A DNA stretch of 64,000 bases from Rubripirellula sp. (GCA_965216875.1 OZ244207.1:2048001-2112000); one strand, 5' to 3'; shown: positions 38,496 through 57,754, counted from the stretch's first letter. A program made the numbers and translations. Notes: a model not told the origin generated them from the letters alone.

Positions 38496-41400
38496 CTATC
38501 GAGCTTTGATGCGTCCGGAACGTTTGCTCTGTGCAGGCGTTTCACCGGCCGGTCGCAACATTTCGGCGGGCAGGAATGTTAGGCAGAATCCAGATTCAAG
38601 CGAATTGAGCACCTGATCCAATTCGCGTTTGCGAAGGCCTTTTTCGAGATCGATCCGCACCGACGAGGCCGCCATTTCGCGCCCCTTGGTGCTAATCCGC
38701 TGGGCGACGTTGCCGAAGCTCGAATCGTAATCGACGAGCTCTTGCTCTTTGACCAGTTGGCCCCACATCATCGTTGCGCACTGCGCGAAGCTGACGGTGG
38801 TCACGCGTTCGGAGCCCTGGAAGGTGCATTTTTCCATCTCGATGATTTCGGTCATGCAACTCTTCAGCTGGGTGCGTAGCTCTGCCTCATCTGCAGGCCG
38901 ATACAAACGCGTGAGCATCTGTGGTTCGTCGCAGTCGTCATCTAAGTTGAGGAAGTTGTCGCGCAGGGTTTGAACCAGCGAGATGAGTTTGGCGCGCCCG
39001 CCAACTTGGAAAATTGCCTTTGGTCGTCCTTGATGGACTTCGTGACAGGCAACCGCGACAGCTGCCAAATGAGCGGAAAGGAGCTCACGGTCTTTCACGT
39101 CTTCATGATGGCTCTCATCGAGCTGCGATCGCAGCTCGCGAATGCGTTGCCAGAGCTTTGCGCACTCGCTACCAATTTGGTCTTCGATCGGATTGATGTC
39201 GCGCAGTACGGCGTGACGATAGTGTGCTCGAACATCGCCATTGGCTTCATAGGCCCTGAGCCAGTGTTCCGTCAGTGATTCGTAGGGTTCAAGCTTGGGC
39301 AAGAACAGGTGGTCGTGAATCCAACGATCAAAGGAATCGGCGTTGGTCGCTGGTGTCGACCAAATGGCTTCGCTGAAAAGGTCTTCCGTGCTGTAAGATT
39401 GTTCTTGGTGGCACGCAAGTCGATAGCCAGTGAGAACGCGGTCTTTGATGACATCGAACATCGGCTGTGTCCGGGTGTCCTCATCCGAAAACTGGGTGTA
39501 CTCTCGCGCGTCCCAACGCACCAGTTCGCTGCATACACGAGAGGCGATATGGTGGCCAAGGTTTCGGTAGGCAGCCACTTGGTCGTCGGTATAGAACTGG
39601 TTCGTTGTCGGTTCATCGGGGAAGGACGGAAACCGATGGCGGATCTGTTGAATGTCGATCGGATCCGATTGGGTGATCGCCATTTGGCAATAGACCAATA
39701 ATCCCGTCGAACCATCTTCGTAGCGAATCCGCGCGACAATGTAGGGTTGATGGACAACCTTTTCTTCGCTGTTCGACTTGTCAACCGCGAGCCGCCCAAA
39801 GTCGATCGGAGCGTCGTGGTCGAGATCGAGAATCTTGACTCCGTATTGGGATGCGGCGGTGGTGCACATCCGCGCAAGCGGTGCCAGCGGGTTGTTGCCC
39901 AAGTTGGCTCCCGCGTCGCTGACGATGATCAAACGACATTTCCTGCGGAACAATTCGGTGACGCCGAGATAGTCGTAGAAGCCACCATCGGCTACGTGCC
40001 CCATGCTTTCCGTTTGAGCCAGGTTTGCCGCGTAGGCTCGTGGACGCTCGGCTCGTGAGGAGTCGGTGTCGGTGATATCGATTGGCTGAAGGATGGAGCG
40101 CAGGAACTGGCAGATGCCCGACCAATGATTCACGCCAACAAAGTAGGCGACCGCAGTAAGCAGAGCGATCAGGAACAGCGAAAAGGTGATGCCGAACCAA
40201 TACCATCCGAAAAACAGGCTGGCGAACAATCCAGCGCACGCGAACGTTCCAGCGACGGGAGTCGAGCGAATTGCTGCAACGAGGCTGGCTCGCCGTGAGT
40301 CTGCGTCTTTACAGCGAATCAACCATTGCCCAAGTCCGTCCCCAAAGAAACTCAAGATAATCGACAGTGCGCGAGTGTCGGTCATCAGTGGCGTCACGGC
40401 AGCGCCAGAAATCGTCACCGCATCGCTGACCGTCAGTGGTGTTCGGCCGACTCCAGGCAACTGAATCTTGCTGGTCTCGTAAATCGAATCGACATGGTCA
40501 CCGTCGCCGCAGTAAACCGGCGAAAAGACAAACGGACGACTGCGCACATGGTAACTGCCTTGGATCACACAAGGCGTCATTCGCGCCGCAAGATAGAGCG
40601 GATGGGGCAAGCCATCGCGGGTCGGCTCGAACTCGTGAAGCGGCGTCGACCCGTCATACGCCGCAGATCCCGATTGAGTCGAACTCAGGAACAACCGCGC
40701 GATTCGGTCGCGATAGTACGCGTAGATGGTGATCGTTTGATTGCGGACCACACTCAGGCAAACGCCGATGCAAAAGAGGGTCCACCAACCGAGCAACCAA
40801 CGCCAACGCACCGCTTGGTCGTGTGGTGGAACGATCAATGTACTGGCGACGGTGCGATCTTGAATGACGCCTTCAAAATAGGTTTCTAGTTTCGAGCGAC
40901 TCGACTCGGCGATCTTGCGTTTGGCGTCAAAATCGTCGCCGCCAAGGGGCTGACGCAGAATCGGCACCGCCGCAAGATCCGCTTTCGAGCTGTCCTTGGA
41001 TCGATATTGCTCGAGAAAGCCGGGGAAGTCGGGGTGGTGCAGCAGTTCATTGAATGTGTTGAGATAAGCACGATGCAGATTTCGTCTGTGGTGTGCAATC
41101 AAATGGTAGTGGCGAATCGTCTGCGCGTCGTGCTTGTCGACATCTTCAAAATAGTCTTTGGCAACGTCGTCGTCGGGCGTGAATCGTGTTCGAAGGTAGG
41201 CTTCCGAGCATGCCGCCATCCGACGCCAGAAACTCCACGGTTCAACTTGATCTTTGCCTATACGAGCTTGCTCGGCGGCTGAGACTGGCGACGGAGGGTC
41301 CGATTTGGTGTAGGTCGGAACGCCGTCGCGCAGCGGGACCAGCACGTTGACTCGCTGGTGCTGGCTCCAATCATCGCCGTAGTTGATCGGCGCCTTAGCA

Positions 41401-42578
41401 ATGTCGTAATCGACGCTCAGCGTTGGGGCGTCTGGGACACCTGTCGTGTGACTCGCAGCCCAGGCTTCAGGGGCGGCACGATACTGCTCAAATTGGTCCT
41501 CGAGGTGGTAGAGCGTTGGCCAGCTTTGGACGTCACCGACGACAAGGTAGGGGCCGCGTTGATCGGCGTAACCACTGATGTCTTCACGAGCCATCCAATG
41601 CACCATCGCGAAGCACGCAAAGAAGACGACGCCACTGGTCGAAACTTTCTGAAGCGCTTTTTGCCAGTACTGGGACTCGTCCCGCTCAGAGCGAAACAGT
41701 CGGTCACGTCCGACGAAGACGAGCACTTGGATGGTTCCCGCGATAATCGCAAACCACTGCGCGTAGTGGTTTAGTTGGATTTCATCGCCGGTACGTGAGG
41801 TATTGGATTTCCCGTTCCCCAAAAAGACTGCAACCGAAACCAAGAGCGAGACAAGAAAGAGCGTTAGCCCAATGCGGCTGATCGTTAGCTGGCGTGGTGA
41901 TTCGCGGAACCACCCGAAGACGGTTGCCAGCGCCCAGCCAACACCCACAATCAACGGAGGATAGAAAGCGATTGCGAGTTCGCCACCGAAGCGAAAGTCG
42001 AGCACGTTGTGCAGCATGATCCGAAACATCGGATCGTCGAAGGAACGCCAAAAGAGCGCGAGGAGTGTTGCGATGAACCCGGCTAAGCCGATGATCACGA
42101 GCGCACTTAATAATACGGACCACAGAAAGCTGGGAGCAATCGATATTCGGTTTGCCAAGTAGCGTCCGACGCCGTTGAGCCGGCCGCTGTCCACTTTGCC
42201 AGTCTTCGAGCAACGCCCCATCATCCAGCGAGCAAGCGTTCCTTGGCTGGATGTTTCGTCGTCGTGAAAGCCGTCCGACTTGTCACGTGATTCTTGCTTC
42301 GCGCGCGTTGCGAGATGGGCAGCGATGTAGCCGCCGCCGGAAACGCTACAAAGGAAGTCGACGTAGCGAAGCAGCCCCGAGTGAGAAAGGCCCTGCAAAA
42401 ACCCATCATTGAACATGGCGGATCGCAGACCACCGCCAGAAAGCGAGAGTCCCACCAGGTTGTCTGGACGCTGCGTATCGTCCTCGGCCGCTTGCTTTTC
42501 TGGGAACGCGTTTGCTCGGCGTTCGTGGACCCGTTTCCACTCCGCTTCGCGGTATTCGTCGGGCAGAGACTCGGTCAT
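38496..42578 (-). CDS. Large membrane-integral patatin/cPLA2-like phospholipase
   Basis: LSLSGGGLRSA oxyanion motif, SVSGGG nucleophile, ISGAA, DGGFYDYLG catalytic Asp, FPDEPTTNQFY; multiple TM helices. Confidence 0.88.
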   Translation of the reverse strand: MTESLPDEYREAEWKRVHERRANAFPEKQAAEDDTQRPDNLVGLSLSGGGLRSAMFNDGFLQGLSHSGLLRYVDFLCSVSGGGYIAAHLATRAKQESRDKSDGFHDDETSSQGTLARWMMGRCSKTGKVDSGRLNGVGRYLANRISIAPSFLWSVLLSALVIIGLAGFIATLLALFWRSFDDPMFRIMLHNVLDFRFGGELAIAFYPPLIVGVGWALATVFGWFRESPRQLTISRIGLTLFLVSLLVSVAVFLGNGKSNTSRTGDEIQLNHYAQWFAIIAGTIQVLVFVGRDRLFRSERDESQYWQKALQKVSTSGVVFFACFAMVHWMAREDISGYADQRGPYLVVGDVQSWPTLYHLEDQFEQYRAAPEAWAASHTTGVPDAPTLSVDYDIAKAPINYGDDWSQHQRVNVLVPLRDGVPTYTKSDPPSPVSAAEQARIGKDQVEPWSFWRRMAACSEAYLRTRFTPDDDVAKDYFEDVDKHDAQTIRHYHLIAHHRRNLHRAYLNTFNELLHHPDFPGFLEQYRSKDSSKADLAAVPILRQPLGGDDFDAKRKIAESSRSKLETYFEGVIQDRTVASTLIVPPHDQAVRWRWLLGWWTLFCIGVCLSVVRNQTITIYAYYRDRIARLFLSSTQSGSAAYDGSTPLHEFEPTRDGLPHPLYLAARMTPCVIQGSYHVRSRPFVFSPVYCGDGDHVDSIYETSKIQLPGVGRTPLTVSDAVTISGAAVTPLMTDTRALSIILSFFGDGLGQWLIRCKDADSRRASLVAAIRSTPVAGTFACAGLFASLFFGWYWFGITFSLFLIALLTAVAYFVGVNHWSGICQFLRSILQPIDITDTDSSRAERPRAYAANLAQTESMGHVADGGFYDYLGVTELFRRKCRLIIVSDAGANLGNNPLAPLARMCTTAASQYGVKILDLDHDAPIDFGRLAVDKSNSEEKVVHQPYIVARIRYEDGSTGLLVYCQMAITQSDPIDIQQIRHRFPSFPDEPTTNQFYTDDQVAAYRNLGHHIASRVCSELVRWDAREYTQFSDEDTRTQPMFDVIKDRVLTGYRLACHQEQSYSTEDLFSEAIWSTPATNADSFDRWIHDHLFLPKLEPYESLTEHWLRAYEANGDVRAHYRHAVLRDINPIEDQIGSECAKLWQRIRELRSQLDESHHEDVKDRELLSAHLAAVAVACHEVHQGRPKAIFQVGGRAKLISLVQTLRDNFLNLDDDCDEPQMLTRLYRPADEAELRTQLKSCMTEIIEMEKCTFQGSERVTTVSFAQCATMMWGQLVKEQELVDYDSSFGNVAQRISTKGREMAASSVRIDLEKGLRKRELDQVLNSLESGFCLTFLPAEMLRPAGETPAQSKRSGRIKAR

Positions 42579-42830
42579 GTATTGGCACCCCATCGCGTTG
42601 GTAACGTCGACTACCCCCGATGATAGTGACACGGCGCTGGGGCAACCTAGTGTTCAAACGTATTTGGCGAGATGTGACAATTAGGTGAGCCTTGGCGAAT
42701 AGCGAGTGATGATGCAACCGAAAAGGTTGTGAGCCTCTCGCCGCTGTCGTTTGTAACTCCGGGCATCAGCTGGAATCTTTGCGCAAGCCGCGCAAAGGCT
42801 GGGTGACGATCGGCAAGCACCGAACGCCAC

Positions 42831-43571
42831 TCACCATTCGCCCGTTTGGCCAAACTTCTTATGCGTCGCATCGGAGAACGCCTTTGCGGCCGCATTGAGT
42901 TTGGCGACGGCCTCGGGCGTCGGAAGCCCCGCGCAGCTGCGGGCTGCGGCGATCACGGTGTTGCATTCGTTCTCGTCCATGAACAACGACGCTTCCAGCA
43001 AACGGGCCTCGTCCTCTTCGGGCACAGCGAGGAATCCGTGTTTGTCGGCATGAATCAACTGTCCTGGTTTGATCGTGCGTCCGAAGACTTCGACTTCACA
43101 ATCCCATCGCACTGGAACAACGTGCGCATGGCCAACCGACAAGCGTTGTGCGAGTGCCTTGAATCCGGCATTGGTCATCTCGTCCACATCGCGAATCGAG
43201 CCGTCCGTGATGGTGCCAACACAACCAAGCGCGCGGTGCAAGTTGCTGTTCACTTCACCCCAAAAGGATCCGAGCACTTTGGGTTTGTCCAAATCCTGCA
43301 CAACGACAATCTTGGGGCCAGGGGCGTTTGCGACGTATTCGCGGTAGGCTGCTCCCGGCTTCTTTTCTTTGTGTGCCGCATTGGACGGTTCGATCACGAC
43401 GGTCACGGCATAACCGACCATGGGCCCCATCTGAGGCATGAAATCGTTCGTCTCTTCGAGGTTGAATCCGTCGTGGGCGATGTCGCTTGAAGTGATCTGC
43501 TCCCAACCGTTGTAGATCGTGGGAGTGTTCCAGCGTTTGAGTTTCAAGAGGTCAGAGTGGGACAGTGGCAT
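42831..43571 (-). CDS. RraA family / HMG-CHA aldolase-like protein
   Basis: MVGYAVT, WGEVN, GTITDGSIRD, PGQLIHADKHG. Confidence 0.9.
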   Translation of the reverse strand: MPLSHSDLLKLKRWNTPTIYNGWEQITSSDIAHDGFNLEETNDFMPQMGPMVGYAVTVVIEPSNAAHKEKKPGAAYREYVANAPGPKIVVVQDLDKPKVLGSFWGEVNSNLHRALGCVGTITDGSIRDVDEMTNAGFKALAQRLSVGHAHVVPVRWDCEVEVFGRTIKPGQLIHADKHGFLAVPEEDEARLLEASLFMDENECNTVIAAARSCAGLPTPEAVAKLNAAAKAFSDATHKKFGQTGEW

Positions 43572-43580
43572 CGGAGAGAC

Positions 43581-44867
43581 TTAGGCGGGTGGGGAAAGGA
43601 GTGATTTGTCGGCGTATGCATCTCGCAGAATCTGCATCGTGTGACGAACGCCAATGGATTGGTTCGAATCGGAGTTGAGATGGTTGCCAATTTGGGTCAA
43701 ACAACCGATGTTTCCGGTCGCAACGAGATCGGCGCTGGTCGCGCGAATGCACTCCGCTTTTTGCTGACCAAGTGAGGCTGCGACTTCGGGTTGGTCGATG
43801 TTGTAAGTGCCAGCGGAGCCACAACAGAGATGCCCCTGGGCGATCTCGACAACCTCTGCGCCAGGAATCGAAGCGAGCAACCCGCGTGGTTCGCTGCGAA
43901 CACCTTGCGCATTGGCCAAGTGGCACGCATCGTGATAGGCAATCCGAACAGCTTGGGACTGGGGCGGGATTTCAACGAGCTCACCCAAACGCGCAAGTAG
44001 TTGCGAAACGTCGCAGACAAGACTTGCGAACTTCGCCGCTTTTGCTTCGTCCGCTGTTCCCTTCAAAACCAAGCCGTATTCATGCATTCCAGACCCGCAA
44101 CCCGCAGCGTTGGTGACGATCGCATCGACGTCGAGTGGAAAGGCTTCCAAGTTCTGTCTTGCGAAGGCCTGCGCCTGCTTGAGGTTACCGACGTGCCAAG
44201 AAAGCGCGCCGCAACAGCCTTGGGTTCTCGGCACGATCACTTCGACACCATTGCGTGTTAGCACGTCGATCGTTGCCGTGTTGATGTCGGGATCGAGCAC
44301 ACTTTGCGCACAACCGGTCAATAGGGCGACTCTAGCGCGACGTTCGCCCTGCGGTGAATAGGTTTCGTTCCAACTTTGCTTGGCAGGAATGGATTCGGGA
44401 AGCAGCGAAAGCATCACTCGCAGTTGCTTGGGCAGCAAACCTGCAAACGGCTTTGCGAGTCTTCCTGACAACGCTGCCATTCGAAAACGGCTTGGGTAGG
44501 GCAGGGTGCTTTGGGCGAGGAACCGAACGACTCTTTGGATCAGTGGGCGACGGCGCTGAGGTTCCTGCAAAGCCCGGAAAGGACTGATTAGATCGCGATA
44601 CGGCACGCCTGAGGGGCAAGCGGGTTCGCACGCCAAGCAGCCGAGGCAGGTGTCGAGGTGGTCCGTCGCTGCGTCGAGCGGCATCGTGCCTTCAAGCACC
44701 TCTTTCATCAAGACGATGCGGCCGCGTGGAGTGTCGGTCTCCTGCCCAAGTTCTTGGTAGGTAGGGCAAGCAGCCAGGCAGAACCCGCAGTGCACACAGG
44801 TGCTGACTGCGGCGGCCATGTCTTCGCCGAGAGGTCCATGATGTTGCGGATCAATGTCGTGTTGCAT
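43581..44867 (-). CDS. glcF: Glycolate oxidase iron-sulfur subunit
   Basis: CVHCGFCLAACP and CLGCLACEPACP 4Fe-4S motifs, two CCG domains, YHDACHL. Confidence 0.93.
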   Translation of the reverse strand: MQHDIDPQHHGPLGEDMAAAVSTCVHCGFCLAACPTYQELGQETDTPRGRIVLMKEVLEGTMPLDAATDHLDTCLGCLACEPACPSGVPYRDLISPFRALQEPQRRRPLIQRVVRFLAQSTLPYPSRFRMAALSGRLAKPFAGLLPKQLRVMLSLLPESIPAKQSWNETYSPQGERRARVALLTGCAQSVLDPDINTATIDVLTRNGVEVIVPRTQGCCGALSWHVGNLKQAQAFARQNLEAFPLDVDAIVTNAAGCGSGMHEYGLVLKGTADEAKAAKFASLVCDVSQLLARLGELVEIPPQSQAVRIAYHDACHLANAQGVRSEPRGLLASIPGAEVVEIAQGHLCCGSAGTYNIDQPEVAASLGQQKAECIRATSADLVATGNIGCLTQIGNHLNSDSNQSIGVRHTMQILRDAYADKSLLSPPA

Positions 44868-44884
44868 CGTATTTTGAATGCTGC

Positions 44885-45973
44885 CTAAATCGGCAAGAAC
44901 TTTGCTTGAGGATCGATCGCGTTCTTAATGCCCTTTGCGATCACGCTCTCATTCCGTTTCCCGAGCCAATGAACGTGAGTGTCGCCACGTACAACCAATC
45001 CTTGAAGGCCTTCGGCGGCAAGCAATGGATCAAGGTCTTGCAGAGCAGATTCCGTTGAAGTCGCCGCCCAAACCACTGCCCCGCCAACACTCACATGCGT
45101 TTGCACGTCACCAAGCGACTCAAGTTTGTCGACAAGCTGCGGAAAACTGGCTGGACTTGACGGAATCTTGACGACGAATGGATCTGCAGCGGCAAAGGAG
45201 AGTTCAATGACTTCGTTCCAATAGGCAGCGGCTTCATCGTCAGCAACGGGCGACAAGGTCAACCCGATCTGTTGCTCGACGTCCGCGGCGATCGGCGCGA
45301 TCGATTCGTGCGGGCCACTGAAGCGCACCATGACCTCTTCGTTGCGGAAGTCGACGGCATCAGGTTCCCAACGGCCGCGTCCGATTTGCTGCATCATGCT
45401 CGCGGCAGTTTTTGCGCTGTCGCACCGAATCTTGAAGCTTCGAGAGGCGGGAGCAACGGGGAAAACTTTGAAGGTCAGATCCACGATCAAACCGTAGCGG
45501 CCAATCGATCCGACGAGCAGTTTGGGAATATCAAAGCCGGCCGCGTTCTTGACGACTTTACCGCCGACACGCACGAGATGGCCATCGCTGGTAAGCAAGT
45601 GTGCACCGAGCAAAAAGTCTCGCAACCCTCCGTATCGAAAGCGACCTGGGCCAGACAATCCAGCGCAAACGGTGCCGGCGAGTGTTGCGCCACCGTCAAC
45701 CAGCATCGGGTCAAAGGGAAGGTATTGTCCTTTGTCCCGAAGTACGTCGATGACTTCACGAAGCGTCGTACCAGCTTTTGCGGTGAAAGTGAACTCGGAG
45801 GGTTCGTATTCGACGATACCTCGGTAGTTACTCGTCGAAACGTAGATCGCGTTGGAATCGCCCGCGTGGCTGAGCGCCGGTTTGGTCCGGTTGCCAACAG
45901 GCACGACGACAGTTGATTCAGCGACGATCGACGTGATCGCATCGAGTGAATCGGGTTCCTGCATTTCACTCAC
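44885..45973 (-). CDS. glcE: Glycolate oxidase FAD-binding subunit
   Basis: [41 protein letters not shown]; lies between glcD and glcF. Confidence 0.93.
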
Positions 45974-47405
45974 GCGAGATCACTCCCGCCTCTTCCAGAG
46001 GATGCAATCCCGTCATCGAAAGTGACGGCGCCTCTTTTCCAGGGAACATTTTGCCCGGATTGCCGATTCGCTTGGGGTCGAATGCCAGACGAAGCCGATC
46101 CATCAGCGCAATCGTCGGCTCATCAAACATCTCTGGCAAATAGTCGCGTTTTTCCATTCCAACGCCATGTTCGCCTGTGATGGAGCCGCCCATTTCGACG
46201 CACATCTTCAGCAACTTGCCAGCGAGCGCTTCGGCGCGATGGAGTGCGCCAGGAATCGTGCCGTCGAACATGATTAACGGGTGCAGGTTTCCATCGCCGG
46301 CATGAAACACGTTCGCTACTCGGATGTCGGCTTCACGAGACATCTGTTCGATTCGCTCGAGCGCTTCACCGAGTCGCTTTCGTGGAACGACACCATCTTG
46401 AACCAGGAAGTCGGGACTCAGTCTGCCGACTGCTGAAAAGGCCGACTTGCGTCCGCGCCAAATCGAAAGGCGATCTTCGGCGTCGACCGCGACACGCTGG
46501 GCAAAGTGGTCGGTTGTGGCAAGGATTTTGGCGAGCTGCTCTTTCTCGTGTTCAATCTTTTCACGTGGACCCTCCAGTTCAACGATCAAGACCGCCGCGG
46601 CGCCGGGCGGGTATCCACACGCAACAGCAGCCTCGGCCGCTTCAATCGCGAGCGCGTCCATGATCTCGAGTGCACCCGGCAGCAGACCAGCGTCGATCAC
46701 TGCCGAGACCGCGTCACCAGCGGCTCGCAAACTCTTATAGCCAACGAGCACCGTGTGGAACATCTCGGGCTTGGGAAGTAGCCGTAGCGTGACTTCGAGG
46801 GCGATCCCGAAAAGACCTTCGCTGCCACAAAACAAGCCGGTGTAGTCGGGACCGATCGATTCGACCGAGTCGCCTCCGAAGTTGACCACTTCGCCACTGG
46901 CGAGAACAGCTTTGATGCCCAAGACATGGTTCGCGGTCATACCGTACTTCAAGCAGTGTGCGCCGCCGGAGTTGAAGGCGACGTTTCCACCAATAGTGCA
47001 GATCGTTTGGCTTGAAGGGTCGGGGGCATAGTACAAACCATGGGGTGACGCCGCATCAGTAACGTGGTTGTTGATCACGCCCGGTTGAACCACGGCGACG
47101 CGATCATCAGGATCGACCCGAAGGATCTTGTTCAGTCGGTTGAGTGCGATGACGATGCCACCAGCGACAGGCAAGGAACCTCCCGAGAGACTCGTTCCGC
47201 TGCCGCGCGCGACAAAGGGGACTGCGTGATCGTGGCACCAACGTACGGCGGCAACGGTTTCGTCAGCGGTTTCGGGGATCACCACGGCAAGTGGCTTTTC
47301 GCGGAACGCCGTTAAACCGTCCGACTCAAATGCAGCACGAAACGCATCGTCTTTGACGAAGCGTTTTGCTGGAAATATCTCGGCCAGACCGCTTAGATCA
47401 GTCAC
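45966..47405 (-). CDS. glcD: Glycolate oxidase FAD-linked subunit
   Basis: [46 protein letters not shown]. Confidence 0.94.
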
Positions 47406-47415
47406 TCGTTTCGCT

Positions 47416-48528
47416 TCAGCTCAAACAATCTTTCAGGGCAGCAAGCAAAGTCGTCACGTTGCGTTTGGTCGCTGAATCGCCCATCAAACCAATCCGCCAT
47501 GCTTTACCAGCGAAGACGCCCAGTCCGCCACCGATTTCAATGTCGTACTCTTCGAGCAATCGACGTCGCACCGCGGCTTCGTCGATTCCTTCAGGAACGG
47601 AGACGCAGTTGAGTGTGCAAAGCGAATTCTTGGGAATGTACTTTAGTCCCAGTTCTTCCAAGCCGGCTCGCAGTAGCTTGTGCATCTCTTCGTGGCGACG
47701 CACACGGTTTTCGATGCCCTCTTCGACAATGATCGAAAGCGCCTCGCGGAGTGCATAAACCATGTTGATCGGCGCGGTGTGGTGGTAAGCCCGTCCACCA
47801 CCGCCGGTGTAATAGTTCTTGAGCATCGAGACGTCCAAGTACCAGCTTTGCACCTTAGTCGTGCGTGCGTCCATCTTTTCGATTGCACGAGGTGAAAAGG
47901 AAACGGGGGATAGACCGGGAGGACATGAGAGGCATTTCTGTGTGCCGGAGTAAACGGCGTCGATGCCCCAATCGTCAACTTTGACTTCGTGACCGCCAAG
48001 CGAAGTGACCGTATCGACCGCAAGCAACATCCCGGCGTCGTGGACAATCTTTCCAACGTTGGTCAGGTCTTGATGTGCCCCGGTTGAGGTTTCAGCGTGA
48101 ACGACCCCCAGCACCTTCGCGTTGGGGTGCTTGCCAACTGCGTCGGCGATCATTTCATCGGTAAAGGTTTCGCCCCAAGGGACTTCGACAACGTGCACGG
48201 TCGCACCGGCTCGCTCCATGTTGTCTTTCATGCGTCCGCCGAAAACGCCGTTGATGCAGACGATGACTTCATCGCCAGGTTCAACGAGGTTCACGACGAT
48301 CGTTTCCATGCCCGCCATGCCGGTGCCCGAGACCGGAAAGGTCAATGCGTTCTCCGTCCCGTAAACCTGCCGCATCAATTGGCAAGCTTCGTCCATGTAT
48401 TCGATGTACTGTGGATCCAGATGTCCCAGTGTTGGCGCGCCGATGGCCCGCAGGATGCGTGCGGGAACGGTACTTGGGCCAGGCCCCATCAAGATGCGCT
48501 GGCGTGGATTGAGCGGAGAAACGGTCAT
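47416..48528 (-). CDS. Serine/alanine:glyoxylate aminotransferase (PLP class V)
   Basis: [34 protein letters not shown] (PLP Lys), YHHTAP, WRIGLMG. Confidence 0.93.
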
Positions 48529-48568
48529 AGCGTCTTCGGGTCGTAAGATAAATGGTTCGCGTGGGCTG

Positions 48569-50251
48569 CTATGCGAGGCAAATCCCCAACAAGCCAGCCA
48601 CAAGAATGTAATACAGAAAGACAAAAAATGTGATCCGTATCACGTCGCCCTCGCGGCCGATCAGCCCGACGACCGCACAGGCGGCAACAACGTTGTGGAC
48701 ACAAATCACGTTTCCAGCGGCACCGCCCACTGCCTGCAGCGCCACGACCCAGCGAGGGTCGGCACCGATATTCTGGGCAACGCCAAACTGAAAACTGCTG
48801 AACAGCATGTTCGAAATCGTGTTGCTGCCTGCGACAAACGCGCCCACACCGCCGATTGCGGGCGACACAGCGGGCCAAGCCTTTCCGACGATTGAGGAGA
48901 CTCCACTGGCCAATTCTTCGGGCATCGAGGCGAGTCCGGCTGCCCCGTCGCCCGAATTCAGGAAGACCTGCACCATCGGGACGGCAAAGATCAGTGCGAC
49001 CGACGCCGAAAGGATCATTCGCCAAGATTTGGTGACCGCTCGGCCAACCGAGGGAGCATCCATTCGATGAAGAAGAACGGTCAGAATACAAACGACGATG
49101 AAGATGGTGCCGGGGAGGAATAGGATCGATACCGGTTTGATTTCGACCGTCGAACCGAACACCGCAACCGTGGTTTGCGGATCGGTCGGCAAGGCAAAAC
49201 TTTTTAGCCAATTGCCAATCTCGAGCTGTGGCAGTCGCGTTAGCACCAACAGGGCGGCAATCAAAACGTAGGGCAGCCAGGCTTGCCAAAGCCGCAGGCT
49301 ACGTTTGGGGGCTTCAAACTTGATCTCGGTTGTACCGCTCCACGAAGCATCCCACTGCGCGGGCTCCGGAAAATCCCAGTGATCATTCTTGGGAAGCAAG
49401 AAGCGATTTTGCGCGGCCGGAATGACGATGGCGAGGCCAACAAGTGAGCCGAGCAGTGAAGGAAATTCAGGGCCAAGAGTGTTTGCGATGATCGCGTAGG
49501 GGATCGTCATGCAGAGCGAAGCAAACAACGCAAACTTCCAGATCGCAAGTCCATCACGAAAACTCCGATTGGCTCCGAAAAAGCGAGTCATCACGCAGAC
49601 AACCAACAGCGGAATGAGCGTTCCGCAGGTCGCATGAAGGATCGCGACTTTTCCTCCGATGATCGGTAGTAGTTCGGTCCAGGAGGCCATCCCCAGTCCC
49701 TCGGCATAGGCCTCGACCGCAGCGCTATCCTCAAGTCCGCCTTTGACTCCAACAAGGATCGGAGTTCCGACGGCGCCAAACGAAACGGGAGTGCATTGGA
49801 TGAGCATTCCAGACACAACAGCCGACTTGGCCGGAAATCCGAGGCCGACGAGAAGAGGCACGCAAACAGCAGCGGGAGTGCCGAAGCCTGCGGACCCTTC
49901 GATGAAAGAACCAAAAAGCCAAGCGATGATGATCACCTGAACCCGCCGGTCGTCACTGATGTTGGTGAAACCCTGACGTATGACCGAGAGCCCGCCACTC
50001 TCGCTGAGCGTGTTCAGCAAAAGGATCGCGCCAAAGATGATGTACAACAGCGTGAAGGTAATGACCAAGCCCTTGACCGAAGCGGCGGCGATTTGGGCAT
50101 AGCTCAATCTCCAATAAAAAAGCCCAACCAGCAGCGCCGTGACGTACGACAGAGGCATCGCCTTGGAGGCTGGAAAACGAAGGATCACCAGAAAGATCGC
50201 AACGACGACGATCGGCGAAAGAGCGACCAATGGAGCGAGCGTTTCGAACAT
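48569..50251 (-). CDS. lctP: L-lactate/glycolate permease (LctP/GlcA family)
   Basis: [39 protein letters not shown]. Confidence 0.93.
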
Positions 50252-50299
50252 AGTGACCCAATTCTTGAAAAGCGGCTTGCCCGATTCAGGCGGCGTTTT

Positions 50300-51280
50300 C
50301 TAGCGATCAAACTCGGGGTTAACGAGGTTGGGTGGGCGTTCACCTCGACAAGCCGCGAGACAATTCGCAACAGCCATGTTGCCCATCTTGGTGCGTGTCC
50401 CGATCGTTGCGCTGCCAAGGTGAGGTGCAACAACCGCGTTTTCTAGCGAATCGAGTTCAGGCTCTAATTGCGGCTCGCGTTCGTACACGTCAAGTCCCGC
50501 GCCTCCGTGTGGGTTGGCCTTGAGCCAATCGACGAGTGCTTTTTCATCGATCACCGGGCCGCGAGCCGTGTTGATGATTCGTGCAGTGGGTTTGAGTCGA
50601 GCCAGTTCCTCGCGTCCAATCAAATGCGTTGTTTCGTTGGTCAGTGCAACGTGGAGCGAAAGGAAGTCGCTCTCGGCAAGCACGTCGTCGAGCGAAGCGT
50701 ACGTTGCGTTGCACTCTTGTTCGACAGCTGCGTCAAGCTTGGATCGGCTCCAGTAAATCACGCGCATGTCAAAACCTGCGGCTCGTCGCGCAACCGCTTG
50801 TCCGATCCGCCCCATGCCGACGATTCCCAGTGTCGCGCCGCTGATATCAAGACCTAGCAATTGAAGCGGCCCCCATCCTTTCCAACTCTGCGACCTCACC
50901 ATCCGGTCGCCTTCGACGACGCGGCGTCCAGAGGCGAGCATCAACGCCAAAGCCATGTCTGCCGTTGAATCCGTCAAGACGCCGGGCGTGTTGGTCACGG
51001 GAATGGAACGCTGGGTGGCAGCGTCGACGTCGATGTTGTTAAAGCCGACAGCGAAATTCGCGATCACCTTGAGCTGAGGAAGTGCGTCCATCACCTCAGC
51101 GTCGATCGTGTCAGTCAATAGGCAAAGCAAGCCATCGGCGTCGCGTGCGCCGTCGATAATCTCTTGCTTTTCAAGGACACGGTCCTCAGCGTTGAATTGC
51201 AGGTCACTCGCCTGCTGCAAGCGTTTCATTGACTCGGGAGGGAGTTCACGAGTCAGAAAGATTCGAGGTCTGTCGGACAT
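50300..51280 (-). CDS. D-2-hydroxyacid dehydrogenase (glyoxylate/hydroxypyruvate reductase, GyaR-like)
   Basis: AVGFNNID, TNTPGVLT, GMGRIG, INTARG, DVYEREP, PHLGSAT. Confidence 0.93.
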   Translation of the reverse strand: MSDRPRIFLTRELPPESMKRLQQASDLQFNAEDRVLEKQEIIDGARDADGLLCLLTDTIDAEVMDALPQLKVIANFAVGFNNIDVDAATQRSIPVTNTPGVLTDSTADMALALMLASGRRVVEGDRMVRSQSWKGWGPLQLLGLDISGATLGIVGMGRIGQAVARRAAGFDMRVIYWSRSKLDAAVEQECNATYASLDDVLAESDFLSLHVALTNETTHLIGREELARLKPTARIINTARGPVIDEKALVDWLKANPHGGAGLDVYEREPQLEPELDSLENAVVAPHLGSATIGTRTKMGNMAVANCLAACRGERPPNLVNPEFDR

Positions 51281-51865: not shown

Positions 51866-51945
51866 CGTAGCTACCTTCGCCAGAAGGTGGTTGTGCGTTG
51901 GATGACCGTCTTCCACTGCCCCACGCTCTGGCGAGCGTAGCTACG
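51866..51945. repeat. REP doublet (REPIN-like), same family as 16745/16993
   Basis: GTAGCTACCTTCGCCAGAAGGTGG...CCACGCTCTGGCGAGCGTAGCTAC between convergent genes. Confidence 0.9.
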
Positions 51946-51959
51946 GTAAGTCACGGGCC

Positions 51960-51999
51960 GTAGGCCGGATCAAGGAGCGTCAGCGACGCAGATCCGGCA
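51960..51999 (+). repeat. GTAG-type REP of a different family
   Basis: GTAGGCCGGATCAAGGAGCGTCAGCGACGCAGATCCGGCA, with GCCGGATC/GATCCGGC stem. Confidence 0.75.
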
Positions 52000-52018: not shown

Positions 52019-54019
52019 CTAGTTGCCTGGGAATCCACCGGGTGCACCGGGAACTTGGAAGTTTGGCAACGTTGGGCCGCCAGCACCGGGCACAGGGCCG
52101 GTTGCACCGGGCTTAGCGAACAGTTCTTCGCGGTCGATGCGGAGCTTCGAATAGGTCTCTTCCGAGATGACGTAGTACCAGTCTGCGAAACGTGCATTCA
52201 GCTCGGCGACACGACGACGGGCATCCGCCAGTTGATCGTTGCGCTCGTCGATCTTGCGTTGGTTCTCCTTCAAGATCTTCTCACGCTCGGCCTCAAGCAA
52301 CTCTTGCTTCTCTTCATCCGACATGCTCGCAAAGTCATTCTCTTCGGATGCTTCCTGGCCAGCCTCGTCAGCTTTCACGACTACCTCGGATTCCGGAGCG
52401 GGGGCTTCGTCGGTGGTTTCAGGCTCAGCCGATGTTTCGGTTTCATCTTCACCAGCGCCTTCGGCCTCTTTTTCTGTATCGTCGGCTGCGTCCTCAGCGG
52501 ACTCGTCTTGGCCACCGCCCGAACCTTCGGCTTCGCCGCTTCCGTCGGATTCAGACTCGCCAGAGGCTTCTTCCGATTCGGTTGTTTCTTGAGCTGGTTC
52601 ACCGCCATCCGCGTCGCCGGCTTCGTCAGTGCTCGCGTCGGTGTTCGCTTCTGCTTCTTCAGTCGTCTCTTCGGATGCTTCCCCCTGACTTTCCTTGGCA
52701 TCGTTAGGTGCTGGATCATCGGAGGTTGCCGCAGCTTCGGTATCCGATGTGGCCGATACTTCGCCGTTAACCTCGGGCTGTGGAGCCATCATTTTTTCGA
52801 GGTCTTCGATCGTCTCTGGTGGCACTTCCAGGGCGGGTGCGGGGAATTTCGATTCGTCAACTTGCGTCATCACCAACAGGTAGCGATTGACGCCGCCTTC
52901 GCTTTCTTCGGCGGATTCGGAGTCTGCTCCGTCCGAGACGCCGGCGATGTTGCCAAACCGAAGGACGTACTGAACGCCGTCCTTCAAGCCAACAGTCAAT
53001 TCACCATTCGCAGACAGTAGTTGGTATTCGGTTCCACGTTGGATGGGATAGAACCCGCGACGGCCAAGTGAACTGATCGCATCTTTGTCAGTCAATAAGT
53101 CTTTGTTGGCGCGAAGCGTCGCACTCATACCGTCGGGTTTGCGGTGCACGTCGGCGATTTTGAGATCGTCGAGCGCATTCTTGATTTCGTTAAGCTTGGT
53201 GGCGTCGAGCTTTTCGCTTGGAAGTGGATCGACTGGAATGGGCGTCAACGGATCGTTGGCCGCATATTCGGCAAGCGACTCGAGGCTCCATTCCGTACCA
53301 TCAAGTTTGACCTTCGCATCGTAGTTGCTGGTCAGACTGAATTGTCCGGTAGCCAGCGAAGCGTTGTGGTCGCGAATCTCCATATCCTCGATATCGATGC
53401 TGCTCAGTTTCAGCAGGTCATCTTCGATCCACTTGGTGAAGCTGGTCGTCAGGGGGGCGTCGTCAAAGTCAACGACGTAAACGAGGTCCTGGCCAGGCAC
53501 GCGAACGAAACGCTTGGCTGCATCGTCGCTTGGGCTGCTGCCGATGATCAGCGACGCGAGCGTCTTTTGTGAGTCGTCTTTGAAGGTGACCATTCGTCCG
53601 ACACCCTCGTCACCGATCTCGAGATCTTCGAGTTTCGGCTCGATCACGCCAAAACCTTCGTGGTCTTCGGCGTTGTCGGATCGAACATCAAGGATCTTCA
53701 AGCCAACAAACGCGTTGGCGGCTTCCTTCATCTGTTCAACGGCGTCAGCTGGATAGCTGGCGCGCGATGGAATCGTCCACAAGCCCGATTCACGGTCTTT
53801 GCGGACTTCAAACGTTTCCAACTCGCCACGTTCGTCATCAAACGTGACGATCTTCAAGCTTGCAGCGGCAAGTGGATCCGAAAAGGTCTCGAAGAGATCA
53901 CGGTTGATCAGCGTATCGTTGCTTTGCTCGGACGTTGACGGCCAAGCGACAAAGGCGGCAATGGCAAGCATCACGACAGCGACGCACCAGAAGACGCCTG
54001 TTTTGGTACCTTCGTTCAT
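52019..54019 (-). CDS. DUF4340 domain protein with long acidic low-complexity insertion
   Basis: N-terminal TM, WTIPS...YPAD, WIEDDLL, LNARFADWYYVIS; follows the GldFG-like gene. Confidence 0.88.
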   Translation of the reverse strand: MNEGTKTGVFWCVAVVMLAIAAFVAWPSTSEQSNDTLINRDLFETFSDPLAAASLKIVTFDDERGELETFEVRKDRESGLWTIPSRASYPADAVEQMKEAANAFVGLKILDVRSDNAEDHEGFGVIEPKLEDLEIGDEGVGRMVTFKDDSQKTLASLIIGSSPSDDAAKRFVRVPGQDLVYVVDFDDAPLTTSFTKWIEDDLLKLSSIDIEDMEIRDHNASLATGQFSLTSNYDAKVKLDGTEWSLESLAEYAANDPLTPIPVDPLPSEKLDATKLNEIKNALDDLKIADVHRKPDGMSATLRANKDLLTDKDAISSLGRRGFYPIQRGTEYQLLSANGELTVGLKDGVQYVLRFGNIAGVSDGADSESAEESEGGVNRYLLVMTQVDESKFPAPALEVPPETIEDLEKMMAPQPEVNGEVSATSDTEAAATSDDPAPNDAKESQGEASEETTEEAEANTDASTDEAGDADGGEPAQETTESEEASGESESDGSGEAEGSGGGQDESAEDAADDTEKEAEGAGEDETETSAEPETTDEAPAPESEVVVKADEAGQEASEENDFASMSDEEKQELLEAEREKILKENQRKIDERNDQLADARRRVAELNARFADWYYVISEETYSKLRIDREELFAKPGATGPVPGAGGPTLPNFQVPGAPGGFPGN

Positions 54020-54034
54020 TGGTATGTCCTTTCG

Positions 54035-56926
54035 TTATTTCAGGCGGCTCTTGCTGATGTTCTCGCGTTCTCGCAAGCGGCGCGAGGCGAACACGACAAC
54101 GCCAACAATCAGTGGCGGGATACATGGCAGCGCCACTGCGGCCGCCTTGACTTGATTTTGAATGCGCGTGACCTGCTGGGCTGCGACGCGTTCGATCTCT
54201 TGAATTTGCGAATCACGGTCCGTTTGCAACTTGGTTCGTTTCACGTCCAATTTGCGTTGCTCGCGTTCCTGTTCGACTTGGAAGCGTTGGATCAGGGCGG
54301 TGACCTTGGCTCGGTCAACCTTTCCGCTCTGGCCTTCCTTTTGAAGTTTCTCGATTTGCTCGCGAAGCGACTTCAGCTTTTCGTCCATGCCCTCTTGAGC
54401 TTCGCGAATCGCTTCGTCGTATTGCGTTTGGAATCGTTCACTTTCCGTGCGGACACTTCGACGGGCCTCTTCTTCAACCGTGTCGATCATTCGCAGGCTG
54501 GTGAAGGTTGGTTGGTGCTTGCGGACGTCGATAAACTCGGTCTCGCCAGTCAACCAATCGATGCAGTTCAAGATGAAGGTGACGTTCTGGAATTGGAATC
54601 GAGCTTCTTCGACTTGATTGGGGTCAGCTCGAATCATCAAGAATTCAGGGATCATCAGGTCGGTGTCGGCGACATAGACAGCGCGAATTGCTTTCTTGGT
54701 CGCTGCTTCCTCGGCCGTTTCGCCGTCTTCTGAGCCAGCATCCTTTTCCGAATCCACTTCGCCTTCGATCTGCATCGCAATCGTTTGATTCGGTTTGATG
54801 TTACCGAGCTCGCGTCGAAGCGCCATCGGATCGTTCATCAGGTTGCGAAGCTTATCGCTGCCGATCAAACCGCTTTCGCGAATCGTTGTCAGCAGCGGAG
54901 TGTGTTTGAAGGTCGCATCGTTCAGCGGCTCAACCGCTCCCGAAACGATCGCCAACACTTCCTTCATTCCGGAGGTGATGACACTTTCGTCGCTCAAGCA
55001 TTCGCCCGGTTGTGCGTTTGGAGCATCTGCATCGACAAAGATCCAAAGCTCGTTCGATTGTTGTTCGAGGTTCGGGTAAGGGTTGTGGGCCTGCCAGACC
55101 AAATCAGGCGTGTACATGCCTTGCAGACCTGCTTTGCCTGGGCAGTTGATTTGCAGTGTTTCCCAAAGAGCGCGAATGTCACCTTTGGGTTGAGGGCCAC
55201 CGCCGCCAAACATTCCGCCAGGTGATTGTTTGGGCATGCCGGTGGGCGTGATGTATCCGGTTCCGACGGGTGCCGGGTCTTCAAAGACGACGGTCGGAAC
55301 GCCTGCCTTAACCGCGTCGATGAAGCGTTGGAATTGCGGAGGTGCCAGGGACGAAGGCTGGACCGCGATCAAAGCTTCGTACATGTCGGGCGAAACGGGA
55401 GCACTCATGTCGACTTCTTCGACTTCGTACTGTTTGCTCAGTTCGTCGATCAGCGGGTGCCGAGGAACCGGCTGGAACGACATTCCCTGCATCACGTTCC
55501 CGCCAAACAGGCGTGCGTCGGTGGCGACGATGCCGATTCGTTTGCGAGAACCGGATGCGACCGTGTTGATGGAGCGAACGAGTTCGTACTCGACCGGAAT
55601 CCCATACTCGAAGACGGGGACAACGACTTTCTCGAGACCTGAACGGAATGCCGCTCCCAAGATCAGTTGTTTCTGTTGGGTGGCACCTTTCTCGCGGACC
55701 ATTCGGTTGACAGGTTCGATGCCGAACCGTTGTGCGGCCAAGTTCGCATCTTCGCTGAACAGCTCAATTCCGTCGTAAAGGTTGACCGTAATGTCGCGAC
55801 CTTTCTTCGACGCCTCGCTGCGGAACTCCTTCAAAAGGTTGATCAATTCGTAACGAGTACGTGCGTAGAGCTCGGGGACATCGGCGCTGATGAAGGCGTC
55901 GATCACGATCGGGCGGTCGCTATCGAGATTGCGAATCAGGTTCTTGGTCGCAGGAGCAAGCGAGCTGACTTTTCCTTCAGTTGCGTCGTAGCGAACGATG
56001 TCCATGTTTCGGAAGAGGACGACCGCGCCGGTGGTTGCAACGATGAGCGCCAGTGTTCTGGCGATGTAGTGCCAAGCCATCGTGTTGCCATCTTTGCCAC
56101 CGGTCCAGTGGCGACGTCCGATCAACACCATACAGATGTAAAGTGCGACGGTCGCGACAAGCACAAAGTAAAGGACCGACGAACTACTGATCACACCGCG
56201 ACCGAAGTCGTCAAAGGGACGTGCGATCCCGCTGTTACTAAGCCATTCGGCGAGCTTCCGCCAGGGGCTGACCGAATCGGCAAGCGCGGCAAAGGCAAGC
56301 GGGGCGTTGAAGAGCGAGCCCAGAATGAAGCCGACGGTGAGGTTGCCGGTCAGGAAGGACGCGATCATCCCGATCGCGATCATCGTCAACCCGACAAACC
56401 AGTAGCCAAGGTAGGTTGTGAAGATCAGTCCGACGTCGATGTCGCCTTCTGTCAGAATCGCAAGTGTTGCAAACGTGCTGATTTGCGAGAACAGCAGCGA
56501 AGCGGTGAAAATCGATGCAGCCGCCATGTACTTGCCGATCACGATGTCAAAGTCATCGGCCGGCAGGGTCAACAGAAGTTCGTCCGTTCCCTGTCGCTTT
56601 TCCTCCGCCCAGATACTCATCGTGATCGCTGGGATGAAGACCAGCATGATCAACGGGTACCAGTAGTTGAGCTGGTCGAGCGTCGCGAGGTTTTGGTTGA
56701 AAAACTCGTAAGGCCAGAAGGCGGCCAGCGACGTGAGGAAGACGAAGATACAGAGGAACACGTATCCCGTTGGATTGCCAAAGTAGCCGATGAAGTTTCT
56801 TTTCATCACGGCAAATGCGGCACGTTTGGTGCCGGCGAGCGTGACGACCAGTGCAAGCAGCACAAGCAAAAAGAAGAGGTCAAACAGCAACAGGCTCAGA
56901 ACTGCCGTGACGACGTTATTCAACAT
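54035..56926 (-). CDS. ABC transporter permease fused to GldG-like domain (GldF+GldG-like)
   Basis: YFGNPTGYVF, PAITMSIWAEEKRQGTDELLLTLP, DATEGKVSSL...T, EYELVRSI, NCIDWL, C-terminal coiled coil + TM. Confidence 0.92.
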   Translation of the reverse strand: MLNNVVTAVLSLLLFDLFFLLVLLALVVTLAGTKRAAFAVMKRNFIGYFGNPTGYVFLCIFVFLTSLAAFWPYEFFNQNLATLDQLNYWYPLIMLVFIPAITMSIWAEEKRQGTDELLLTLPADDFDIVIGKYMAAASIFTASLLFSQISTFATLAILTEGDIDVGLIFTTYLGYWFVGLTMIAIGMIASFLTGNLTVGFILGSLFNAPLAFAALADSVSPWRKLAEWLSNSGIARPFDDFGRGVISSSSVLYFVLVATVALYICMVLIGRRHWTGGKDGNTMAWHYIARTLALIVATTGAVVLFRNMDIVRYDATEGKVSSLAPATKNLIRNLDSDRPIVIDAFISADVPELYARTRYELINLLKEFRSEASKKGRDITVNLYDGIELFSEDANLAAQRFGIEPVNRMVREKGATQQKQLILGAAFRSGLEKVVVPVFEYGIPVEYELVRSINTVASGSRKRIGIVATDARLFGGNVMQGMSFQPVPRHPLIDELSKQYEVEEVDMSAPVSPDMYEALIAVQPSSLAPPQFQRFIDAVKAGVPTVVFEDPAPVGTGYITPTGMPKQSPGGMFGGGGPQPKGDIRALWETLQINCPGKAGLQGMYTPDLVWQAHNPYPNLEQQSNELWIFVDADAPNAQPGECLSDESVITSGMKEVLAIVSGAVEPLNDATFKHTPLLTTIRESGLIGSDKLRNLMNDPMALRRELGNIKPNQTIAMQIEGEVDSEKDAGSEDGETAEEAATKKAIRAVYVADTDLMIPEFLMIRADPNQVEEARFQFQNVTFILNCIDWLTGETEFIDVRKHQPTFTSLRMIDTVEEEARRSVRTESERFQTQYDEAIREAQEGMDEKLKSLREQIEKLQKEGQSGKVDRAKVTALIQRFQVEQEREQRKLDVKRTKLQTDRDSQIQEIERVAAQQVTRIQNQVKAAAVALPCIPPLIVGVVVFASRRLRERENISKSRLK

Positions 56927-57004
56927 GGTGGATTGAACGCTTTCGAATAGTCAGATGTCGGACAACAACCGAATGGAATCAACAGAGTTGAAGGTGCGAA
57001 GAAA

Positions 57005-57754
57005 TCAAACGGTTGCACCATGAGTCAGCTTGTGGAACGCCTTGTCGAGGTCACCATTGCCGTGCTCTCGAAGTTCATCAACCGTGCCGTCAAAGACCAA
57101 TCGTCCTTCGTTGATCATGACGACGCGGTCGGCCATCGCTTCCACTTCTTGCAGGATGTGCGTGCTGAGCAGGATCGTTTTCGTCTCGCTCAATCGACGC
57201 ATCGTTTTGCGAACGCCATGAATCTGGTTGGGATCCAAGCCGGCGGTCGGTTCGTCAAGGATCAGCACGTCGGGCTCGTGAAGCAGTGCTTGGCTCATGC
57301 CGACACGTTGCTTGAAACCCTTCGAGAGCTTGCTGATGGACTTGTGCAGCACCGACGAGAGGTCGCAGATGTCGATCACCGCATCGATGCGTTCCTGCTT
57401 CTTGCTGGCGTTCATTCCACGAGCGTCGGCAAAGAAGTCGAGCATCGACGACGGCGTCATCTCGGGATAGAGCGGGCCGTTTTCGGGAAGGTAGCCGAGG
57501 TGGCGACTGCCTTCCAACCGGTCCTCCATCATGTTGTGACCGGCGATCCGGGCCTGACCTTCGCTTGCGGCAATGTAGCCGGTCAGCATTTTCATGGTCG
57601 TGCTTTTGCCTGCACCGTTGGGACCCAGGAAAGCAACCAGCTCTCCCTCGCCCACCGTAAAGGTGACATCTCGTGCAGCTGCGAAGGGGCCATAAAACTT
57701 GCTCAGCCCAATCGCCTCGATCATCGGGCGCGGCGTTTCTTTCTCGGACGTCAT
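57005..57754 (-). CDS. ABC transporter ATP-binding protein (GldA-like)
   Basis: GPNGAGKST, LSKGFKQRVG, ILDEPT, STH. Confidence 0.96.
   Translation of the reverse strand: MTSEKETPRPMIEAIGLSKFYGPFAAARDVTFTVGEGELVAFLGPNGAGKSTTMKMLTGYIAASEGQARIAGHNMMEDRLEGSRHLGYLPENGPLYPEMTPSSMLDFFADARGMNASKKQERIDAVIDICDLSSVLHKSISKLSKGFKQRVGMSQALLHEPDVLILDEPTAGLDPNQIHGVRKTMRRLSETKTILLSTHILQEVEAMADRVVMINEGRLVFDGTVDELREHGNGDLDKAFHKLTHGATV

Follow-up and report, generated by a model that had tools for sequence, protein, structure and literature searches.

Layout of the operon

The operon described here occupies positions 42831 to 51280 on the minus strand of a 64,000-nucleotide stretch of DNA from Rubripirellula sp. 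(GCA_965216875.1, OZ244207.1:2048001-2112000), hereafter the window. It comprises genes that together would import glycolate, oxidize it to glyoxylate, and convert the glyoxylate to glycine, with a reductase in front that may serve an onward route to glycerate. In their order of reading, the genes are as follows:

50300..51280, minus strand: GyaR/GHRB-type D-2-hydroxyacid reductase, 326 amino acids (aa), a predicted hydroxypyruvate/glyoxylate reductase
48569..50251, minus strand: LctP-family lactate/glycolate permease, 560 aa, over the cut-off of TIGR00795
47416..48528, minus strand: class V alanine/serine:glyoxylate aminotransferase of the AGXT type, 370 aa, present in one copy, homologous to the alanine:glyoxylate aminotransferases (AGT) of Anabaena and animals
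45966..47405, minus strand: GlcD, putative flavin adenine dinucleotide (FAD)-linked subunit of glycolate dehydrogenase, 479 aa, 46% identical to E. coli GlcD
44885..45973, minus strand: GlcE, putative FAD-binding subunit, 362 aa, overlapping glcD by 8 bp
43581..44867, minus strand: GlcF, putative Fe-S/CCG subunit, 428 aa, over the cut-off of PRK11274
42831..43571, minus strand: protein with the RraA/HMG-aldolase fold (HMG, 4-hydroxy-4-methyl-2-oxoglutarate), 246 aa, with a predicted activity as class II pyruvate aldolase or as oxaloacetate decarboxylase, accessory to the operon

As the initial annotation of the window had it, seven co-directional genes lie close together; the gaps between the open reading frames, from the gyaR-like to the rraA-like gene, are 48, 40, 10, -8, 17, and 9 bp, a spacing that fits a single transcript (the start codon of the aminotransferase, ATG, is at 48528; the reference for the searches began one codon farther downstream). 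The GC content of the operon is about 57%, the same as in its surroundings. A promoter and terminator scan returned no promoters and 15 terminator-like sites against 11.2 expected, and no regulator gene or site was identified for the operon. The further statement that glcB, gcl, glxR, bhcB, bhcC, bhcD, glcC, and glcG are absent from the window also stood, any tblastn matches to these genes lying elsewhere in the genome.

Probable glycolate oxidation and its substrate

The three subunits of the putative glycolate dehydrogenase (GlcDEF) are encoded in the expected order, with the FAD and Fe-S/CCG domains all present. GlcF and the permease exceed the cut-offs of their models (346 against 333 bits for PRK11274, and 347 against 341 bits for TIGR00795); GlcD (504 of 897 and 467 of 568 bits with two models) and GlcE (194 of 284 bits) stay below theirs, which are still the best-scoring models for these proteins. 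The permease is the only LctP-family gene found genome-wide and scores far below the E. coli-type LldP and GlcA models. GlcDEF of E. coli oxidizes D-lactate too, and an operon for D-lactate or D-glycerate instead of glycolate, leading to pyruvate or hydroxypyruvate and then to alanine or serine, would agree with the distance of the sole permease from LldP and GlcA, with the low GlcD and GlcE scores, and with LutABC not being found in the genome.

Such an assignment is improbable, however, in view of three observations. A separate LldD-like gene exists elsewhere in the genome (38% identical to E. coli, below the cut-off); the aminotransferase is the most constant neighbor, yet lactate oxidation needs none; and in two relatives, a GlcD of the same clade occurs together with malate synthase G, an enzyme specific for glyoxylate. 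In the first of these (G188), malate synthase G, over its cut-off, directly precedes a glcD 74% identical to that of the window, and in the second (G209), glcB-glcG lie within 3 kb of glcD-glcE, with a glcD 81% identical. In a 41-row tree, GlcD from G188 and the AGXT-linked GlcD of Chthoniobacter flavus are sisters, with a support of 100/99, and G209 GlcD falls into a weakly supported group with that of the window. The pairing with malate synthase G supports glyoxylate as the product of GlcDEF; from family and context, we infer glycolate to be the substrate.

Aminotransferase and reductase

The aminotransferase had initially been called BhcA-like, a likeness that proved not to be close: it scores 216 bits with the BhcA model, whose cut-off is 650, and it shares 31% identity with BhcA from a relative (G064) that has a genuine bhc cluster. 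Among its homologs, Anabaena AGT ranks first (E 2e-109). Animal AGT and PucG follow with E values between about 1e-80 and 1e-85 (near 1e-81 for animal AGT, 3e-80 for PucG), and the plant serine:glyoxylate aminotransferase (SGAT; E 9e-48) is far more distant. Judged by homology, it is an AGXT-type enzyme, neither BhcA nor plant SGAT. A purine (PucG) reading was rejected; PucG scores like animal AGT, but allA, allC, allD, and allE have no match genome-wide. Family and context point to the amination of glyoxylate by this enzyme and, more weakly, to the deamination of serine as well.

The reductase scores 382 bits with the GyaR model, whose cut-off is 455, and its best structural database matches are archaeal glyoxylate reductases (E 1e-95). 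H-L-G-S and R-T-K-M motifs, together with a cofactor loop lacking Asp (YWSRS in the window), are found in this protein and in 11 of 11 operon-linked rows, one row being a duplicate. According to one study (PMC6303947), Gly-Ser and R-x-x-M motifs correlate with the highest activity on hydroxypyruvate. Moreover, were the reductase active on glyoxylate only, its co-transcription with GlcDEF would, it may be argued, cancel the work of the latter, which favors hydroxypyruvate; with less assurance than for the preceding steps, the reductase may act on this substrate in vivo. A GlxR-like reductase directly precedes glcD in three relatives (G209, G211, and G154; loci L156, L160, and L162) of a family sample without a gcl match; such an enzyme could likewise form glycerate or act as a glyoxylate reductase, and so leaves the role of the reductase in the window undecided.

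Routes for glyoxylate in the rest of the genome

Assembled as a single contig of 8.26 Mb, the genome is 99.09% complete. Malate synthase (PF01274) has no match in this genome, the search being positive as a control in 6 of 14 genomes; similarly, E. coli GlcB, AceB, AceA, GlxK, GarK, GlcC, and Frc give no tblastn match genome-wide. The glycerate pathway through gcl and the oxalyl-CoA route were rejected, because the thiamine diphosphate-dependent enzymes matched score best as other enzymes (the best Gcl match, at 33% identity, is an acetolactate synthase, and the other two are an acetolactate synthase and a keto-acid decarboxylase-like protein) and frc is without a match. The beta-hydroxyaspartate cycle (BHAC) was rejected as well, since BhcA to BhcD all fall far below the cut-offs and are unclustered; BhcB-, BhcC-, and BhcD-like proteins of 167 of 550, 113 of 690, and 146 of 500 bits are scattered in the genome, and the BhcC of G064, used as a query, finds no match there. 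In G064 itself, the bhc-like cluster (L186) contains a BhcC over the cut-off with an allE-like gene alongside. The malyl-CoA lyase route was rejected in part only, on a search for its lyase family: two HpcH/HpaI-family genes are present, one scoring best as an HpaI/GarL-type aldolase and the other having no NCBIfam match at 1e-25. Rubisco has no PF00016 match in the genome, so that the chemistry cannot be photorespiration proper and at most runs through the same reactions.

Glyoxylate from GlcDEF would thus have no textbook exit, as the known routes are missing, and an aminotransferase is encoded next door. Elsewhere in the genome, gcvT, gcvH, gcvPA, gcvPB, and glyA score over their cut-offs, and a glycerate-kinase-family gene (MOFRL, with PF13660 over the cut-off) is present, none of them linked to the operon; the MOFRL protein is, more weakly, assigned as a glycerate 2-kinase. 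With gcvTHP, glyA, and this gene present and the other routes absent, a C2-type route is complete on paper, its reductase and kinase steps being assigned at family level, and to that extent the reading of the initial annotation is supported. The genome also holds ppc-like (32%) and pck (49%) genes, a serA-like gene, the aldolase Eda for 2-keto-4-hydroxyglutarate and 2-keto-3-deoxy-6-phosphogluconate (KHG/KDPG), and a GlxR-like gene below the cut-off. About 0.9 kb after the MOFRL kinase gene lies a YagF-type (YjhG/YagF) xylonate dehydratase, 62% identical to E. coli and over the cut-off (L016:14823-19100); this locus may possibly belong to an oxidative pentose route and be an internal source of glycolate or glycolaldehyde. 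Noted in addition, at locus L180:3683-7051, was a threonate/erythronate catabolic cluster of a major facilitator superfamily transporter, a 3-oxo-tetronate kinase, and a decarboxylase, over the cut-off.

Conservation in Pirellulaceae

Conservation was assessed in 201 Pirellulaceae genomes, namely that of the window and 200 others at least 85% complete, among which fragmented assemblies undercount linkage; linkage denotes an aminotransferase and glcD no more than 5 kb apart on one contig, with the reductase or RraA-like gene counted within 8 kb. The aminotransferase is matched in 135 of the 201 genomes and the GlcD clade (at least 57% identity) in 66, with 13 weaker matches outside the count. 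The two genes are linked in 24 genomes of 14 genera, and their order is hence not due to chance. The operon as first annotated is conserved in this core and much less at its ends, since 7 genomes (4 genera) have a close orthologue of the reductase near the core and 5 genomes (2 genera) have the RraA-like gene there. In one genome (G087, L121:10375-11460), an inverted threonine-aldolase-family gene (PF01212) takes the place of lctP between reductase and aminotransferase; in another (G001, L029), the alignments of glcD, glcE, and glcF are all broken into two or more pieces, owing to frameshifts or assembly errors.

Malate synthase occurs in 12 of the 201 genomes, including 4 of the 66 with the GlcD clade and 1 of the 24 linked genomes; Gcl is found in none at E 1e-150, in a search without a positive control, and BhcC in one (G064). 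All 24 linked genomes have gcvP, and all have a glycerate-kinase-family gene (22 PF13660 and 2 PF02595). Separately, malate-synthase TIM-barrel matches were noted in open frames of about 1400 aa (G128:C10, G027:C10, and G136:C6), twice the length of malate synthase G, which may be fusions.

A run labeled as an algae metagenome yielded one contig spanning 42000-50665 of the window with 198 differences in 8,666 bases, which represents a near-identical strain, and runs X6 and X7 gave short scattered matching pieces only; this one metagenome study lends slight support to an algal niche.

The next gene after the rraA-like end of the operon, 198 bp away on the same strand (window 38496-42632, minus strand), encodes a membrane protein of 1378 aa whose N-terminal domain is patatin-like; it was not seen among the conserved neighbors. 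On the other side lie an intergenic palindromic repeat resembling repetitive extragenic palindromes (window 51866-51999, 25-nt arms), for which blastn returns 532 pieces in the genome, 193 of them of 80-99 nt, and a Gld-like transporter cluster (window 52019-57754, minus strand) that encodes an ATP-binding cassette (ABC) ATPase, an ABC-2 permease carrying a fused GldG-like domain, and a long protein of acidic character.

RraA-like protein and the aldolase branch

The RraA-like protein matches PF03737 with 72 bits (cut-off 24.5), and its modeled fold resembles PSPTO_3204, yeast YER010C, and 3noj, an aldolase for HMG and for CHA (4-carboxy-4-hydroxy-2-oxoadipate); the mean predicted local distance difference test score of the model is 72, with values below 50 at residues 125-151, a stretch that holds R127-D128. 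Residues E106, R127, D128, and E202, in the arrangement E106-x20-R127-D128, are invariant in 21 of 21 aligned sequences, that is, the protein of the window and 20 chosen from 80 loci. The protein combines the RraA fold with an acidic-x20-R-D motif, the wording of which for RraA-like class II pyruvate aldolases reportedly goes back to Mazurkewich in 2014. The HMG/CHA aldolase (LigK/PcmE equivalog) models score 35 of 179 and 32 of 304 bits, below their cut-offs. A class II pyruvate aldolase or oxaloacetate decarboxylase is predicted, and most homologs of such kind are considered likely class II pyruvate aldolases in PMC5065237.

The initial annotation had offered a new aldolase route as an alternative way to assimilate glycolate. 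In one version, the RraA-like enzyme, of a fold with reported activity on 4-hydroxy-2-oxoglutarate, would join glyoxylate and pyruvate to this compound as a substitute for malate synthase; in a reverse-type version, it would split an algal sugar acid so as to set free glyoxylate or glycolaldehyde, and the operon would dispose of an internal two-carbon by-product. The invariant metal- and catalytic-type residues, the fold, and the view of its homologs just cited lend the idea some substance, as do the position of the gene 9 bp behind glcF, the xylonate dehydratase near the kinase gene as a possible internal source of glycolaldehyde, and the distribution of the GlcD clade, which is present in 24 of 31 genomes with an RraA-like orthologue against 42 of 170 without one, kin not being independent. 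Linkage to glcD in only 5 of the 201 family genomes nonetheless rules out a fixed pathway member and leaves the gene accessory, and across GTDB, glcDEF parts adjoin it in 7 of the best 80 loci. The neighbors in 82 clustered loci are instead BNR/sialidase-like (21), NanM-like (9), dihydrodipicolinate synthase-type aldolase (7), and HpcH (6) genes; 77 of 150 further neighbors were scanned and include glycosidases, sulfatases, and transporters amid many unrelated or unmatched genes. As the homologs stand mostly in acid-sugar clusters, the aldolase looks recruited from acid-sugar catabolism. The Eda aldolase, moreover, is already in the genome. The aldolase route is accordingly weakened and has a slim chance of being the purpose of the operon. 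The closest named records to the protein (78-83% identity) are titled Rubripirellula, and operon carriers are titled Rubripirellula, Rhodopirellula, or Planctomycetaceae; the wider family (loci L034-L113), at about 70% identity, extends through Planctomycetota, Verrucomicrobiota, Bacteroidota, Chloroflexota, and Bacillota records and is without a named function.

Proposed route and its weight

Upon the observed gene content, gene order, conservation, and absence of the known routes, the following mechanism is proposed. LctP would import glycolate, GlcDEF would oxidize it to glyoxylate, and AGXT would transaminate the latter to glycine, which the unlinked gcvTHP and glyA would carry to serine; serine would become hydroxypyruvate, to be reduced by the operon's reductase to glycerate and phosphorylated by the kinase to phosphoglycerate. 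On paper, two glycolate would give one glycerate, one CO2, and one NH3. Glycolate would probably be scavenged beside sugars, with the RraA-like aldolase a later recruit. Uptake, oxidation, and amination to glycine are quite probable; whether the added reductase serves an onward route to glycerate is evenly balanced, and growth with glycolate as the only carbon source by the C2 route is doubtful. It is likewise put forward tentatively that marine Pirellulaceae grow on algal glycolate by a full C2-type route (AGXT, GHRB reductase, and MOFRL kinase), to which the RraA-like aldolase might add a side branch from glyoxylate and pyruvate.

A number of points weigh against the full route. Within the genome, gcvP and the kinase are unlinked to the operon, the MOFRL kinase is far below both NCBIfam glycerate 2-kinase models, GlcD and GlcE score under their cut-offs, and a fused serine-dehydratase-like gene, below the cut-off, offers a possible bypass of the glycerate steps. 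PMC6303947 describes GHRB as the most promiscuous subfamily and cautions against extrapolating function. Across the family, the reductase is linked to the core in only 7 genomes, and close orthologues occur in three more (G090, G092, and G085) without AGXT or GlcD among the matches listed; one linked genome (G161) has a malate-synthase-family match, and the presence of the glycerate-kinase family in linked genomes does not discriminate, since 185 of the 201 genomes have it. Outside the family, deletion of gcvTHP in C. necator only slightly affects growth on glycolate, the C2 route being marginal there according to PMC7486775. The strongest evidence against sole-carbon growth comes from C. flavus, whose orthologous core (AGXT 70%, GlcD 71%, and GlcF 64% identical to the proteins of the window) is accompanied by gcvP and a GlxK-family kinase, and which is reported to be unable to grow on glycolate alone (PMC5615132); this is softened by the missing reductase (the closest is only 38% identical, without a close orthologue) and by the lack of a permease match in the 19-kb locus.

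A more modest explanation may be given about a one-in-three weight: the operon would serve only glycine supply or glyoxylate disposal. Oxidation of glycolate would then yield electrons, and its carbon would end in glycine, serine, and one-carbon units, without a net route to glycerate. The carbon might alternatively be lost through glycine cleavage or reach pyruvate through the serine dehydratase whose like is in the genome, and the reductase heading the operon would be a housekeeping glyoxylate reductase. The orthologous core was read in this way in print, and the reported non-growth of C. flavus agrees with it (PMC5615132); the explanation parallels SAR11, in which glycolate substitutes for glycine through glcDEF according to PMC6775983, and it suits the 17 of 24 linked genomes in which no close orthologue of the reductase lies within 8 kb. 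It leaves unexplained why a reductase with hydroxypyruvate-associated motifs heads the operon in 7 genomes of 4 genera, and outside glycine is probably not needed where serA-like and glyA genes are present. The photorespiration-like assimilation of the initial annotation is supported as regards the absent alternatives and the C2 parts present, and is tempered by the earlier publication of the core under a less ambitious interpretation, by C. flavus, and by the accessory nature of the reductase.

Among the exudates of algae, glycolate is a major one, and bacteria are counted as its users in surveys by their glcB, gcl, or bhc genes. With the GlcD clade in 66 of 201 genomes, few of which have malate synthase, gcl, or bhcC, such surveys would miss these genomes. 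Should net flux through glycine, serine, and glycerate be true, a heterotroph would live on plant salvage chemistry, which failed as the main route in C. necator (PMC7486775), and it would be a fourth natural route of net glycolate assimilation, in a family where 62 of the 66 GlcD-clade genomes show no malate synthase; if the operon only supplies glycine, the result is a wider record of a known arrangement.

Comparison with known systems

The nearest system is the AGXT-glcDEF-permease core without glcB published for Verrucomicrobia TE4605 and C. flavus, for which only the formation of glycine from glycolate was inferred (He 2017, PMC5615132, Text S1, Fig. S5). The order AGXT-glcD-glcE-glcF, the absence of malate synthase from operon and genome, and an LctP-family permease (in TE4605) are common to both; in the window, a GHRB reductase gene precedes and an RraA-like aldolase gene follows, the permease is upstream, and the phylum is another. 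The literature searched, mostly excluding subscription journals and bioRxiv supplements, neither describes the operon in Planctomycetota nor mentions its extension by reductase and aldolase, and the terms aminotransferase, serine, and Planctomycet are absent from the available text of a 2025 preprint on marine glycolate users (10.1101/2025.09.29.679071), its supplements lying outside the search. The family-wide linkage of the core, the pairing of the GlcD clade with malate synthase G, and the reductase-bearing variant are new here.

With the C2 cycle of plants and cyanobacteria, the same reaction series is possible on paper, from glyoxylate through glycine, serine, hydroxypyruvate, and glycerate to phosphoglycerate. 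The plant C2 enzyme pair seen by the initial annotation is retained as to a series complete on paper and the fit of the reductase motifs to hydroxypyruvate, whereas the enzymes are not of plant types: the aminotransferase is on the AGXT/PucG side and not plant SGAT, the GHRB reductase lacks the NADH-type Asp, the kinase is of the MOFRL kind, gcv, glyA, and the kinase are unlinked, and Rubisco is missing. The E. coli glc operon (glcC, glcDEFGBA) shares the glcDEF order and an LctP-family permease; of this operon and the glycerate pathway (gcl, hyi, glxR, and glxK), the genome of the window lacks glcB, glcC, gcl, and glxK and has a distant GlcG-family gene elsewhere. The BHAC (bhcABCD), treated in PMC11166783, has in common a class V aminotransferase predicted to act on glyoxylate, while BhcB, BhcC, and BhcD orthologues are not found here.

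SAR11 HTCC1062, in which glycolate replaces glycine via glcDEF (PMC6775983), and Thermococcus kodakarensis, which has enzymes for turning 2-phosphoglycolate into glycine and serine, yet secretes glycolate (PMC11032457), share the conversion of glycolate through glyoxylate to glycine in organisms without the Calvin cycle; as far as the available parts of these sources go, they serve glycine supply or removal, and no linked reductase-aldolase operon is described. In the mammalian AGXT/GRHPR/HOGA1 set, an AGXT-type aminotransferase and a GHRB reductase similarly handle glyoxylate and the serine-hydroxypyruvate pair, which is an analogy; HOGA1 is unrelated to the RraA fold of the aldolase in the window, and a likeness of role would be conjecture. 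Taken against these systems, the operon is the published AGXT-glcDEF arrangement with two genes added, and is not the BHAC, the glycerate pathway, or photorespiration proper.

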